Origin: Candidatus Uhrbacteria bacterium
GTDB lineage: Bacteria > Patescibacteriota > Patescibacteriia > UBA9934 > GWF2-40-263
DNA: 64,000 bases
Direction of reading: 5' to 3'
Assembly: GCA_013204385.1 (NCBI GenBank)
Contig: JABMNY010000003.1
Location: 14,270 to 78,269 of the forward strand
Shown here: positions 3,153 through 64,000 of the stretch, one piece after another
Layout: each line of letters begins with the position of its first letter
How positions within the stretch are numbered: the first letter of the stretch is position 1
Made by a program: the position numbers and the translations under genes
The notes under the pieces: generated by a model
What the model was told of the DNA's origin: nothing
The model's database searches: none
Seen by the model: the letters and a program-made list of their open reading frames with translations, nothing else

Positions 3153-4192
3153 TTACGAAGATCTTTTGCCGAACGTTTAACGTGACTCATGGTCGCACAC
3201 CGTTTTTTCCACATCGTTGGCAAAAGCCCCACTGCTTCTTTAAACGCACGCCACCCAGTCCGTTCAAATACCAGAACGTATCCCAGTCGACCGATCTCAG
3301 TAACCAAGATGAGAGGAAATGAAAAAAGAAAATTGACGAATCGAAGATTTTTAAAAAGCATCAACCAATGATTCCGTGTTGAAAAAAAGTTTCTCAATGA
3401 CGATTTGTCTCGACGATTACGAAGACGTTCTCTGAATCCACTCTTTTCAGGTCCATACATGCCACGATAATGATACGCAATCGCTTGAGGCACATACAAT
3501 GCATCCCAGCCAGCATGCTGAAGACGCCAAGCGAGATCAACATCTTCTTTGTACGCAAAAAAGTGGTGGTCGAGAATTTCATCCTCATAGCGCACACCCT
3601 CAAGGGCAGATGCTCGATAGAGGGCAAGAGCCCCTGAAATCCCAAACACCTGTTCAACTTGTTCAAATTGTCCTTCATCCAATTCCCCTGCTCCACGATC
3701 TGTCACTGTGCGGTTTTTATGAGGGTTGAGTCCAACAGAATCAATCCGATCTGAACGAATAATCTCTTTGAACAGTTCGTCTCCCAAATTCTCTCCAAAT
3801 GCGCGGAGAAGCTTTCCTCCAAAACTTCCAACCTCTGGATGAGCTTTTGTCACTGCGACAATTTCTGCAAGAAATGTCTCTGACAACAAAACGTCCGGAT
3901 TTGTCAGTAGCACAAATCGATCTTGAACTTCTTCCTTTGGCCAATGCTCCAGAGCATAGCGAATCCCCTGATTATGTGCCGCTGAAAATCCAAGATTTCG
4001 TGCATTTCTTAAAAACGTAATTTCAGGATAGTTTTCACGTAAAAATGACTCAATTCCATCTGTTGAAGCATTATCAATAATAAGCACATTGAAATCCCGG
4101 TAGGTCTGCCCCATAATGGATTCTAAGAGATCTGGAAGGAACCGCATGGAGTTCCAAGTCACAATATGAATGCTGATAGATGGATACGTCAT
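3140..4192 (-). CDS. Glycosyltransferase family 2
   Basis: 350 aa; ISIHIVTWNSMRFLPDLLESIMGQTYRDFNVLIIDNASTDG GT2 signature. Confidence 0.75.
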   Translation of the reverse strand: MTYPSISIHIVTWNSMRFLPDLLESIMGQTYRDFNVLIIDNASTDGIESFLRENYPEITFLRNARNLGFSAAHNQGIRYALEHWPKEEVQDRFVLLTNPDVLLSETFLAEIVAVTKAHPEVGSFGGKLLRAFGENLGDELFKEIIRSDRIDSVGLNPHKNRTVTDRGAGELDEGQFEQVEQVFGISGALALYRASALEGVRYEDEILDHHFFAYKEDVDLAWRLQHAGWDALYVPQAIAYHYRGMYGPEKSGFRERLRNRRDKSSLRNFFSTRNHWLMLFKNLRFVNFLFSFPLILVTEIGRLGYVLVFERTGWRAFKEAVGLLPTMWKKRCATMSHVKRSAKDLRKWFV

Positions 4193-55805: not shown

Positions 55806-57911
<2,106 letters not shown>

Positions 57912-58834: not shown

Positions 58835-59338
58835 ATGCCTCCTCGTCGCATTCTTGAAATTGGACCAGGACCCAGTCCTCTCCATCATCGAGGAATAGAA
58901 AACTCCCTGCAACTAAAGGACAATGAAGAGTATCACGGCATTGACTCACACGAAGGAATGTCTGAAAGAACCGTCTGGAAGCAAGCAAAGGAAGAATATG
59001 GAGATCGTGTGTTTCTGTATCAAGGGGATCGCACTGACCTCCATCAAATTGCAAACAACAGCATGGACGAACTTGTCGCTCTAGGAACCTATGGTCGAAA
59101 CGGAAAAGCCGTTCGCGAGTTTGATCGTGTTCTTAAAGAAGGTGGAAAACTTCTGTTGGGAACCAACACATCAAATGAACAGGCACTTCGTGAATCTTGG
59201 GGAGCCCGTCTTGAGCGACGTGGGTATCAAGAACTTCCCTCCAAAACAAAGCGATATACCCATAAAGGAAATACTTCTGCTGAATCTCCTTTTATCGTCC
59301 TGGTTTGGCAAAAAGGCTATTCTGAGGAATCGCATTGA
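58835..59338 (+). CDS. Small class I SAM-dependent methyltransferase inserted between nusG and rplK
   Basis: motif I ILEIGPGPSP. Confidence 0.55.
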   Translation: MPPRRILEIGPGPSPLHHRGIENSLQLKDNEEYHGIDSHEGMSERTVWKQAKEEYGDRVFLYQGDRTDLHQIANNSMDELVALGTYGRNGKAVREFDRVLKEGGKLLLGTNTSNEQALRESWGARLERRGYQELPSKTKRYTHKGNTSAESPFIVLVWQKGYSEESH

Positions 59339-61170: not shown

Positions 61171-61647
61171 GTGTTCAATTTACAAGATCCCCCACCACGT
61201 CGGTGGATCGAACCAACCATCAAGGAGTATACCGGTCCTGAACGGGTTGGAGTCCTTGCAATAAGTTTCATTGTCCAAGAACGCGACAAACATCCGGATC
61301 TGGCGCTGGCTCAGCGTATTGTCGGAGATCATCCCCACTTTCTCTACGGATCCAATGCTGGGAATCGCTACGCTCATGCAGGATGGGCTTATCTGACCCT
61401 TGGTCTGGACGATGAGGCTTGGCGAGTCCTTGTCACCATCGAGCGCACAGCCATGCACTTTCTCAAGATGAAAAGGTTCCCTGCTCCTACCCCTACTGCC
61501 CTCGTATTCATCTACACGGCACTGCGCATGGGAAAACTCGACTCCGCATATCTTGGAATCCAGCTCGCTCGCCTGCGCCGACTCACCTTCCAAGAAAAAG
61601 AAGATCTCTCAATGCTCGATCAAGCCTGCATCCAAGCAGCCATCTAG
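61171..61647 (+). CDS. 158-aa orphan protein, GTG start with AAGGAGGTG RBS, elevated GC
   Basis: ORF + RBS; no motif recognised. Confidence 0.5.
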   Translation: MFNLQDPPPRRWIEPTIKEYTGPERVGVLAISFIVQERDKHPDLALAQRIVGDHPHFLYGSNAGNRYAHAGWAYLTLGLDDEAWRVLVTIERTAMHFLKMKRFPAPTPTALVFIYTALRMGKLDSAYLGIQLARLRRLTFQEKEDLSMLDQACIQAAI

Positions 61648-61743: not shown

Positions 61744-62400
61744 ATGTCCATCCTTACACGATCTGAAATCACAAAACACATTACAGACCAACAGCTGGTA
61801 TTCACCCCCGCATTGGATCAGTTTCAACTCCAGCCACATGCAGTCGATCTTCGACTTGGCTACAAATTTCTCATACCACGCAACTGGACCGTGGATGAAA
61901 AAGGACGTCGTGCCATCAACATGTCGATCGATGACATCGATGCGCATCGCGATCAGTTCGATGAAGTCCAGCTCCAACCAGGACAATACTTCGATCTCCT
62001 CCCAAACGAATTCGTGATTGGGACAAGTCTCGAACGCATCGAAATAAACGCGATGAACCTGATGGCGATTCTCTTCCCTCGCACGAGCACAAACCGTCGT
62101 GGGATCGACCTCTCCCTTTCAGGCATCATCGACACCGGCTACAAGGGACACCTGATCTTCCCAATGAAGAACGAAGCGGGCGACCAAGTCATTCGCATCT
62201 ATCCAGGCGAGCGCGTCTGCCAAGTCATTTTCCAAGAACTCAACCACCCCCTCACCCCAGAAGAAGCCAACCTCCACGGCCTCTCTGCTGCCAAGTACAG
62301 CGGATCAGGTTCGCAAGGCTTCAAACTCGACAAAGACGAAGAGCGACAGATGCTCATCTCAGGAAAACTCGACGATTTGAAAAAGGAATACGGACTTTAA
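61744..62400 (+). CDS. dcd: dCTP deaminase / dUTPase-fold protein
   Basis: 218 aa; MSILTRSEI...VDLRLG dCTP deaminase N-terminus. Confidence 0.8.
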   Translation: MSILTRSEITKHITDQQLVFTPALDQFQLQPHAVDLRLGYKFLIPRNWTVDEKGRRAINMSIDDIDAHRDQFDEVQLQPGQYFDLLPNEFVIGTSLERIEINAMNLMAILFPRTSTNRRGIDLSLSGIIDTGYKGHLIFPMKNEAGDQVIRIYPGERVCQVIFQELNHPLTPEEANLHGLSAAKYSGSGSQGFKLDKDEERQMLISGKLDDLKKEYGL

Positions 62401-62403
62401 ATA

Positions 62404-62431
62404 AAATCAGCCCAAAACGGGCTGATTTTTG
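62404..62431 (+). terminator. Intrinsic terminator after dcd
   Basis: aaatcagcccaaaacgggctgattttt. Confidence 0.65.
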
Positions 62432-62616
62432 TTTGGTTTGTCCCAAAATAGATTGACAAAAGACTGTTTTTATAGTACCTTTGCCTGTTCGCTTTTTTAT
62501 TCTGATCTTGTGAAACCAGCGCTCATTACGTTGATTTCGCCAGAGCAGAAAATGGCGGCGCAGGGAGGGTGGCGATAGCTTTCCCATGTGTATCCTTATC
62601 GCATTCGAGGTTTGTC

Positions 62617-64000
62617 ATGAAATTCAACACTTACGTTGGTTCCAACAACTGGAAGAAGGTTGAGATTCAGGTTCCAGACGGCAAATGGGCTCTGAGAATC
62701 AAGCTCTCGACTTCCCTGACTTCACACCCACAGGACAAGCGCTTCGGGATCAACCAAGAGGGACACTCGGACGCACGCCTGCGTCCACATACCCAGGTGG
62801 TCACTCGATTCGTACGAGTCCTAGGAGTGGCTGAAGATGCGGTCACGATCCACCAGATCAACGACCATCACGATCGAGAGTCCCACCACTGGATCAACGA
62901 TCTCGATCTCCTGCTCGTGTGTGATCAACCCTTCGCGGTTCTCACCATCAGTGACGACCAGGAATTCCCCAGCCAGAGTGGCTACCGACGAGCCAGCATC
63001 CGGGTCGCTCGGCAGGTCCACAAGGGTGAACTGTCGCAGACGTTCAGACCAGTCGTGCTCAGAAGCACCGAGAGCGACCTGCAGATCAATCATGCGCCGG
63101 TGCAATACGTTCAACTGAAGGATGTTGCACAAGCCATCAACATCGATCCCCTCGAATGTCTGCGCACCTTCGCTGTTGTCTCGCCCTCGAGCTACTACGA
63201 AGCGAATGCGTCGATCTCGCACCGGGGTGCACGGTATCGCATTTACGAGACTGTCCCACAGGGCGGTGACTGTACTGGTGCAAGTCAGTGGGGAGAGACA
63301 GCGATCAGCTGGGAAACCTTCCAGGCGAACATGAACACGAAGGGTTGGCATTCGGACCAGATCTTCATTCCCATGGCCTGGGCGCGCGACATTCTCATCC
63401 TCGCGCACTTCGGGTTCATCCCAGGAGTGAACGAGAAGCCGGAGCGTTCCTTCCTGATCAAGGCCGAACAGCCCGAACCCTACACTATCCTCGGACTCCT
63501 GCCTGTACTCCCGATCGACGAGATCCGAGAACTGCGGGGCTCCATCCAGAAGGCACGAACACCTGGAGAGTGGAACGCTCTGGTAAAAGCGACCCTGGGT
63601 CCCCAGAAACAGAGCGCGACGCACCCCAAAGACCGCCCCTTCACAGACAGAGACCGATCTGCCTTCGAGTGTTGGGTCGAGACCGTGACTGGTCATAGCA
63701 ACTGGGCTCAGGCGCAGGACCTCAACGACACCGGCAGTTTCGTCTACCACAACGACTTCCGTGTCCTGCGACTCTTCAACGATCGTCTCTCGATCGCAAC
63801 CAGCTTCTGGTCACGAGGTGGCGCAGATAAAGGACAGTACTGGGCCGGTTTCATCGCTGTACACCCAGAGATCGCTGTGGATCCCAGGCGTGAACCCGCG
63901 CTCTACAGGCTGATGATCTGGCCTGACCAGATCCTTCGCCAGACGCCAATCGGTGTGGAAGGAGGATTCTTCCCAGAGATCGAAGGCATCGAGCCCGAGA
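62617..64000 (+). CDS. Large (>460 aa) orphan protein, ~58% GC, open to window end
   Basis: Uninterrupted frame from ATG 62617 (GAGG RBS) to position 64000; MKFNTYVGSNNWKKVEIQVPDGKW...; absent from ORF track because it has no stop within window. Confidence 0.55.
   Translation, partial: MKFNTYVGSNNWKKVEIQVPDGKWALRIKLSTSLTSHPQDKRFGINQEGHSDARLRPHTQVVTRFVRVLGVAEDAVTIHQINDHHDRESHHWINDLDLLLVCDQPFAVLTISDDQEFPSQSGYRRASIRVARQVHKGELSQTFRPVVLRSTESDLQINHAPVQYVQLKDVAQAINIDPLECLRTFAVVSPSSYYEANASISHRGARYRIYETVPQGGDCTGASQWGETAISWETFQANMNTKGWHSDQIFIPMAWARDILILAHFGFIPGVNEKPERSFLIKAEQPEPYTILGLLPVLPIDEIRELRGSIQKARTPGEWNALVKATLGPQKQSATHPKDRPFTDRDRSAFECWVETVTGHSNWAQAQDLNDTGSFVYHNDFRVLRLFNDRLSIATSFWSRGGADKGQYWAGFIAVHPEIAVDPRREPALYRLMIWPDQILRQTPIGVEGGFFPEIEGIEPE

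Follow-up and report, generated by a model that had tools for sequence, protein, structure and literature searches.

Pseudoknots in the 5′ leader of an mRNA, placed in or by the ribosome-binding region, serve as autoregulatory operators of Escherichia coli rpsO (S15), the alpha operon (S4) and rpmI-rplT (L20), and of phage T4 gene 32. Each of these operators is bound by its own gene product and each RNA is tied to one gene family. The small H-type riboswitches (preQ1-I/II/III, SAM-II, SAM-V, guanidine-III and fluoride) span ~45-55 nucleotides, pair a loop with the 3′ tail and lie just 5′ of the Shine-Dalgarno (SD) sequence. Here we describe a leader with features of both groups in a 64,000-nucleotide stretch of Candidatus Uhrbacteria contig JABMNY010000003.1 (positions 14,270 to 78,269; this whole stretch is termed the window, and coordinates are window positions unless another contig is named). 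The leader, at 62488-62616, precedes a gene that starts at ATG 62617 and encodes a 481-residue protein. It shares with the autoregulatory operators its position and its link to one gene family. By contrast with S15, S4, L20 and gp32, the protein is neither ribosomal, single-strand-binding nor basic and lacks any known RNA-binding domain, and no mimicry of an rRNA site emerged. The size and architecture of the small H-type riboswitches are also shared, but the motif has no Rfam match, its SD is not in the second helix and it accompanies a single gene family. We hold with moderate confidence that the locus is a monocistronic unit of the Candidate Phyla Radiation (CPR), composed of a sigma-70-type promoter, a pseudoknot leader that would act as a translational operator and the 481-residue gene.

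The CPR bacteria, or Patescibacteria, have small genomes full of proteins of unknown function, and their gene regulation is hardly understood. An inducible-expression tool is still lacking for them and descriptions of natural cis-regulatory RNA from these bacteria are very scarce (PMC11665869). Our literature search returned no paper joining Patescibacteria, riboswitch and pseudoknot, and in the papers that name both CPR and riboswitches no natural motif from CPR bacteria is described. The leader is a conserved, previously uncatalogued pseudoknot that is absent from Rfam, and it is the most informative feature of the locus. A preliminary description of this DNA, made from the letters and a list of open reading frames (ORFs), missed it; the gene reported there is real but was mis-described. 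Neither a pseudoknot leader nor the GC excess reported below is categorically new in kind. The leader nonetheless offers a compact, covariation-supported RNA motif outside Rfam, a candidate translational operator or riboswitch; should the locus prove ordinary, the outcome is still a correct re-annotation, that of a 481-residue conserved hypothetical protein with a predicted regulatory leader.

The leader RNA and its covariation

Alignment of upstream DNA from the window and three homologous loci (L003, L008 and L010) revealed that 62488-62616 is almost invariant. The leader of the window is 86-87% identical to those of L003 and L008, compared to 68% for the coding sequences, and its 3′ part was recognizable before every full-length family member for which upstream DNA was obtained, including members with 25-31% protein identity. 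The 5′ part (62490-62557; this and all other elements of the unit lie on the plus strand) forms a long imperfect stem-loop in minimum free energy (MFE) folds of the window, L002, L014 and L015 leaders. A hairpin is found at the same place in most homologous leaders, with varying sequence and length.

The hairpin is followed by stem P1 and its loop (62558-62591), which were delineated by RNAalifold, pair counts and the MFE fold. The 5′ arm of P1 (62558-62570, core GGGAGGG at 62563-69) pairs with the 3′ arm (62578-62591, core CTTTCCC at 62579-85, with a bulged A at 62586) across a 7-nucleotide loop (GGCGATA, 62571-77), and P1 is 8-13 base pairs (bp) long. Stem P2 (62572-62602) is formed by GCGATA of the loop (62572-77) and TATCGC (62597-62602), 20 nucleotides downstream of the loop. 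Of the connecting loops, L1, between P1 and P2, has 1 nucleotide, L2, which separates the 5′ arm of P2 from the 3′ arm of P1, has 0-1, and L3, the last, has ~10-17. The predicted fold of 62558-62602 is an H-type RNA pseudoknot, in which both helices are supported by covariation and the loops fit coaxial stacking.

Covariation was assessed in A5, a structure-blind MAFFT alignment of the last 75 nucleotides of 14 distinct leaders. RNAalifold predicts P1 independently from this alignment, with compensatory changes in 5 of 8 pairs. When P1 and P2 are taken together, 87.4% of the alignment cells are paired, versus 40-50% in controls with the 3′ partners displaced by 1-3 columns. Changes on both sides were observed in 9 of 16 pairs, a count reached by 11 of 500 shuffles, and none of the 500 attained the observed percentage paired or the covariation score. 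Double changes affect 7 of the 10 pairs in P1, the outer part of which swaps wholly between lineages with complementarity kept (CCAGA/UCUGG, ACGCG/CGCGU, GCUGA/UCAGC, CCAGG/CCUGG). P2 is paired in all 14 leaders and contains two covarying positions, its pair-sets being GCGAUA/UAUCGC, GCGGUA/UACCGC (six sequences) and GCGAUC/GAUCGC (one sequence). The loop and stem of the leaders also contain an invariant UGGCG, and P1 harbors consecutive conserved G·U pairs, G62567-U62581 (13/13 leaders; A5 columns 25-39) and G62568-U62580 (11/14; columns 26-38). Because each of these G·U pairs would turn into a C-A mismatch on the opposite strand, the structure belongs to the mRNA-sense strand. Their conservation, with no drift to G-C or A-U, suggests that a protein, metal or ligand recognizes this surface specifically.

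The compensatory changes also bear on whether the upstream conservation could reflect coding, either by an upstream ORF (uORF) starting at ATG 62552 (MAAQGGWR and a stop) or by an N-terminal extension that starts in frame at GTG 62569. Neither frame is interrupted in the window, and TGG-CGR-TAG is conserved in many leaders. However, the uORF start is ACG in L008 and L010, and L019, L039 and L063 have no start codon in frame; GTG 62569 lacks usable SD spacing and the matching frame meets a stop in L014. Coding would leave the compensatory changes in both helices unexplained, and homologues start MKF at the aligned ATG. With starts and frames unconserved, we rejected the uORF and the extension as the cause of leader conservation and give this explanation hardly any credence.

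Searches of Rfam 15 yielded no match in four homologous loci at E ≤ 1 and, for the leader alone, no sense-strand match at E ≤ 10. With the A5 covariance model, every locus gave a single strong copy (43-71 bits), in each case 5′ of a family gene, and the 64-kb window contained no other. An exact-pattern scan of metagenomes for the motif returned 43 loci, 39 of which were rejected as false positives: about half of these fall in a conserved coding stretch of rpoC (LDGGRFATSDLNDLYRRV), and the others had no SD and start codon. The remaining four loci, in which an SD and start codon do follow, represent three distinct sites (L030, L034 = L039, and L063), each of which was then found by hmmsearch to be followed by a family member. 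Both the family and the leader motif were absent from 2.9 million viral contigs, where a loose motif pattern gave 41 chance matches, none confirmed by the covariance model. The motif is tied exclusively to this gene family, and in its specificity to its own gene the structured leader is like those of ribosomal protein genes.

Transcription and proposed translational control

A sigma-70-type promoter can be read at 62453-62481, with a -35 element TTGACA (62453-58), a 17-nucleotide spacer and a -10 element TACCTT (62476-81), and transcription would start near 62488. TTGACA-17-TAnnnT is present at the equivalent place in L002, L003, L006, L008, L012, L014, L015 and L017. Upstream, an intrinsic terminator of the dcd gene (62403-62429; an 11-pair stem and then a T run, found by terminator scan) marks the 5′ boundary of the unit. 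The SD, GAGG at 62607-62610, is located 4 nucleotides after P2 and 6 nucleotides before the ATG; an SD-like purine run is found 1-10 nucleotides 3′ of the P2 3′ arm in 13 of the 14 aligned leaders, and L015 is without a clear SD. The preliminary description had assigned the gene its own TTGACA-containing promoter and GAGG ribosome-binding site after a dcd terminator, and all three elements are indeed present. The 3′ end of the unit was read on a 3.8-kb Logan contig (L001), which contains the same DNA as the window with the entire 481-residue gene. The TGA stop is at L001 3630-3632, equivalent to 64060-64062 and 62 nucleotides past the window, and ~70-115 nucleotides 3′ of it is a CCCTCC...GGAGGG hairpin with a TATTTTGTTT tail. 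From 62453 to ~64190 the DNA is a self-contained monocistronic unit consisting of the promoter, a ~130-nucleotide leader, the gene and a terminator-like hairpin.

The promoter form is shared with an unrelated gene. In L008, a gene for a 521-residue protein has nearly the same promoter as the family gene (CCGTTGACAAAAGGGCTATTTTTTGATACATT; L008 1625-1662 versus window 62450-62481). Likeness of promoters between loci is weakened as evidence of co-mobility, as this gene shares the TTGACAAAAGGnCTATTTT...TACATT form; TTGACAAAAGGnCTaTTTT-N-TAcATT may be a form that strong promoters generally take in these CPR genomes and not specific to the unit.

We propose that the pseudoknot is the translational operator of the 481-residue gene. 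Once the leader is transcribed from the proposed promoter, the pseudoknot would sit where the 30S subunit must bind (~-20 to -15 from the ATG), and its stabilization would limit initiation at ATG 62617. The stabilizing factor would most plausibly be the encoded protein itself, in autogenous control, or alternatively a small ligand. Translational control by the leader, via the protein or a ligand, is in our estimate its most likely role. We favor autogenous control because the motif occurs only with this gene, and we rank a ligand riboswitch second and a constitutive stabilizer or standby site third.

Several observations weigh against autogenous translational control. The SD is outside both helices and simple SD sequestration is not evident. 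With an acidic to neutral pI (5-8), the encoded protein does not resemble a typical basic RNA binder, and no RNA-binding domain is known in it. The -10 element of the window is weak, matching the consensus at 3 of 6 positions, and a stricter consensus scan did not call the promoter. The covariation comes from 14 sequences of ~4 sub-lineages. Finally, the leader could serve mRNA stability or be a standby site, in which case it would be a constitutive element and not a regulatory one.

In a riboswitch, the pseudoknot would be a metabolite- or ion-sensing aptamer and the gene would act on or respond to the ligand. We view this as possible but unlikely. A small H-type pseudoknot directly 5′ of the SD is the arrangement of the preQ1, SAM-II/V and guanidine-III classes, the loop and stem nucleotides are strongly conserved, including the invariant UGGCG and the G·U pairs, and in Uhrbacteria the gene lies among deoxynucleotide genes (dcd, a dCMP deaminase-nucleoside deoxyribosyltransferase fusion, DHFR, ThyA and Tmk). 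Unlike most riboswitch classes, which control genes of several families, this motif was found before one protein family only; it also matches no Rfam class and has an SD that is not in its helices. Moreover, the nucleotide-gene neighbors are absent in L002, L006, L012, L014, L015, L017 and L020, in which the flanking genes are unrelated (e.g., IF3-L35-L20, RF1 and S2/EF-Ts, UvrB, glycosyltransferases and a P-type ATPase).

A constitutive leader would combine a 5′ stabilizer hairpin with a pseudoknot used as a standby site or enhancer, or would protect the mRNA of a strongly expressed gene. The near-consensus -35 element and the conserved promoters suggest strong expression, the 5′-terminal hairpin has a form typical of mRNA stabilizers and the fold leaves the SD free. 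A stabilizer, however, needs no invariant loop, no conserved G·U pairs and no covarying pseudoknot kept to homologues with 25% identity, and we judge a purely constitutive role distinctly unlikely.

The protein family and its GC excess

The plus-strand frame is stop-free from ATG 62617 to base 64000, a total of 461 codons, in accord with the more than 460 reported in the preliminary description. As surmised there, the frame was missing from the ORF list for lack of a stop in the window: the list covers only ORFs with a stop inside the source, and this one runs off the window end. The translation of 62617-64000 (plus strand, codons 1-461, completed on L001) is an exact match to a deposited 481-residue protein (P0001), [quoted passage not shown], from an 80,442-bp contig. 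The gene had been called large, but at 481 residues the protein is of ordinary size, and its stop just beyond the window is an outcome that the description itself had listed as counting against its proposal. The deposited product and homologues at 25-66% identity with many invariant residues indicate that the frame is coding beyond chance.

Nor is the gene the orphan it was taken for. A word-indexed protein search found 7 further clusters at 47-66% identity to the 481-residue protein (8 clusters with itself, 47-100%), and an exhaustive profile search of 1.84 billion representative proteins, each representing a cluster at 50% identity, gave 29 matches at E ≤ 0.001. Thirteen of the 29 are further full-length members (P0009-P0021) with 25-31% identity. 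Nearly all family clusters are singletons, and the hosts named in the sources, which span several lineages, all belong to the CPR (Uhrbacteria, "Patescibacteria group", Doudnabacteria and Saccharimonas). A scan of genome contigs for the family found two loci only, and a protein-pattern scan of metagenome contigs found no match. An alignment of 20 family sequences shows invariant motifs and many invariant residues, with conserved blocks ARQVHKGELG, FSPS(S/T)YYEPN, C-G-x-x-WGG, FG(F/Y)xPG, LPVLP, DPRR(D/E) and a C-terminal GY/GF. The earlier statement that the protein has no recognizable motif holds: the family has no match among Pfam, PHROG, NCBIfam and PADLOC models and no PDB sequence match, and its confident predicted structure has no fold neighbor in PDB or BFVD. 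The proteins are soluble, acidic to neutral (isoelectric point (pI) 5.0-8.3) and Trp-rich, and contain Arg far above Lys (R/K ratios of 1.2-7.4 versus 1.07 in the window proteome). We assign the gene to a rare, well conserved and apparently CPR-restricted family; it is not an ORFan. Like other lineage-restricted CPR proteins of unknown function, family members are annotated "hypothetical protein" in metagenome-assembled genomes (MAGs) and are confined to CPR genomes. They differ from these in being unusually rare, in being steadily GC-richer than their hosts and in having their own conserved structured leader.

Two altered forms of the gene were observed. The homologue in one Uhrbacteria species has a 14-nucleotide frameshifting deletion at about codons 30-35 (L008 ~3620-3640 and L010 ~320-340, equivalent to ~62705-62720 of the window), which was seen independently in an ENA metagenome assembly and in a MAG from Crystal Geyser. 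Its leader and remaining ~400 codons are intact and conserved, and the gene could be a recent pseudogene or could be expressed by recoding or by internal restart, P0002 (407 residues) having been called from an internal ATG. The P0007 homologue (L003, L004, L005 and L011; gene at 224-1180 in L003) ends at 318 residues, without the C-terminal third, and the next gene begins 79 nucleotides on. This truncated gene is found in an NCBI MAG and two Logan assemblies. Its GC content at third codon positions (GC3) is 0.90 and its leader is intact, and from these two features the N-terminal two-thirds may function alone.

The preliminary description gave the gene a GC content of ~58%, and the measured value is 57.3%, compared to 45.8% for the remaining window. 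GC3 is 0.683 versus 0.418 ± 0.067 (z = 4) for a reference of 56 long window ORFs that includes the antisense shadow ORF described below. The codon usage of the gene differs from that of the window and its R/K ratio is higher. At 13 of 13 distinct loci measured, GC content is higher in the gene (0.55-0.66) than in its flanks (0.39-0.57). The excess falls chiefly at third codon positions (GC3 0.64-0.90) and amounts to 5-17 GC points above each host across 25-100% protein identity; it is present in syntenic Uhrbacteria copies whose proteins are only 62-66% identical and in the 25%-identity members from Doudnabacteria and Saccharimonas. A simple recent transfer is a poor explanation because a donor signature would not persist over such divergence. 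Ordinary expression-linked codon bias is also unlikely, as rplK and rplA do not rank with the window ORFs of highest GC3 (rplA, 0.42). Candidate causes are mRNA selection, biased gene conversion and recurrent exchange among CPR. The excess is established for each host genome as a clean and repeatable anomaly and, since simple recent transfer does not account for it, offers a tractable case for gene-specific selection or biased conversion acting on base composition.

GC3 is also raised in the two genes directly upstream, an unannotated 158-residue ORF at 61171-61647 (0.52) and dcd at 61744-62400 (0.58), against a window mean of 0.42. A pair made up of a 158/161-residue ORF and dcd also precedes the homologue in L008. 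The GC anomaly may extend across a three-gene block of this ORF, dcd and the 481-residue gene.

A more speculative proposal would link the leader, the fold and the base composition. The leader may be a dedicated RNA partner of the protein, the two forming a new CPR-specific ribonucleoprotein with a new fold, and the unit would be GC-rich because it is constrained or semi-autonomous. The pseudoknot would then be a protein-binding scaffold and the lineage-variable 5′ hairpin a specificity element, an arrangement that can be likened to protein genes with a cognate non-coding RNA in their own 5′ untranslated region. We consider this very doubtful.

Genomic context and additional features

In the preliminary description, the gene was taken as probably the first of another cargo unit continuing beyond 64000. 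The DNA of the window belongs to the core chromosome and contains gyrB (55818-57911), nusG, rplK, rplA, a RodA/FtsW-family gene, rplY and dcd (61744-62400; Pfam DCD, E = 3e-26), the last located upstream of the 481-residue gene. It contains no tRNA genes, and DNA and protein searches showed no similarity to phage records. The family gene stands alone in every locus, with 140-690 nucleotides of non-coding DNA 5′ of it, and its neighbors vary between loci. No integrase or transposase was found beside it across the homologous loci, and no flanking or terminal inverted repeats were found around it in five loci. The cargo claim did not survive these comparisons.

More broadly, the gene could be recently acquired foreign cargo or a mobile cassette, its GC content being a donor signature. 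Its composition (GC 0.57, GC3 0.68), distinct codon usage and higher R/K would agree with this, as would the rare and patchy distribution, the variable genomic contexts, the damage to some copies and, in one species, direct repeats of 72 nucleotides that bracket the unit. Yet the GC excess is seen in 13 of 13 loci whatever the host GC, including syntenic Uhrbacteria copies with ~35% protein divergence, over which a recent donor signature would have ameliorated. Integrases, transposases and terminal inverted repeats are lacking, as are matches in viral contigs and phage records, and the gene, which ends 62 nucleotides past the window, opens no operon. Recent acquisition as cargo is in our view quite improbable.

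The repeats are copies of a bipartite, hairpin/terminator-like element of ~72 nucleotides, two of which, 75-88% identical and in the same orientation, occur at L008 3270-3341 and 4998-5069. They bracket exactly the promoter, leader and gene in this species (L008; also L009 and L010, the latter contig beginning inside the first copy) and were seen nowhere else in the DNA compared. They may be the footprint of an insertion or duplication, or a locally reused terminator. The gene order in L008 is dcd, the unrelated 521-residue gene and the homologue; the 521-residue gene was rejected as a paralogue of the family gene (hhalign probability 0.3%).

In L003, L010 and L011, the homologue is followed by genes for a dCMP-deaminase/nucleoside-deoxyribosyltransferase fusion, DHFR, ThyA and Tmk. 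This deoxynucleotide/thymidylate cluster of Uhrbacteria-like genomes (L003 1259-8037 and L010 1775-10094) also holds two ~106-residue ORFs and an unannotated protein of ~950-1058 residues, to which L010 adds a glutamine-synthetase-like gene. The contig of the window probably resembles the L003/L010 cluster past 64062. As the neighborhood is limited to Uhrbacteria-like genomes that are close relatives, it gives at most a weak hint of function.

The minus-strand ORF of 309 residues at 62821-63750 was read in the preliminary description as an antisense shadow of the gene, and our data agree. When synonymous codons were shuffled within the gene, the frame of this ORF remained open for a mean of 238 codons, compared to the observed 329 (p = 0.10). 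The longest open antisense stretch of eight homologues ranged from 65 codons (L020) to the full gene length, and was never above its own null. With an open stretch that is unconserved and within the shuffle null, the ORF was rejected as a real gene and is a non-coding shadow of the GC3-rich sense gene.

A final observation concerns the ribosomal region of the window. The nusG and rplK genes are mostly adjacent in bacteria. Between them here, at 58835-59338, is a 167-residue ORF with weak matches to class-I methyltransferases (Methyltransf_11, E = 5e-5).

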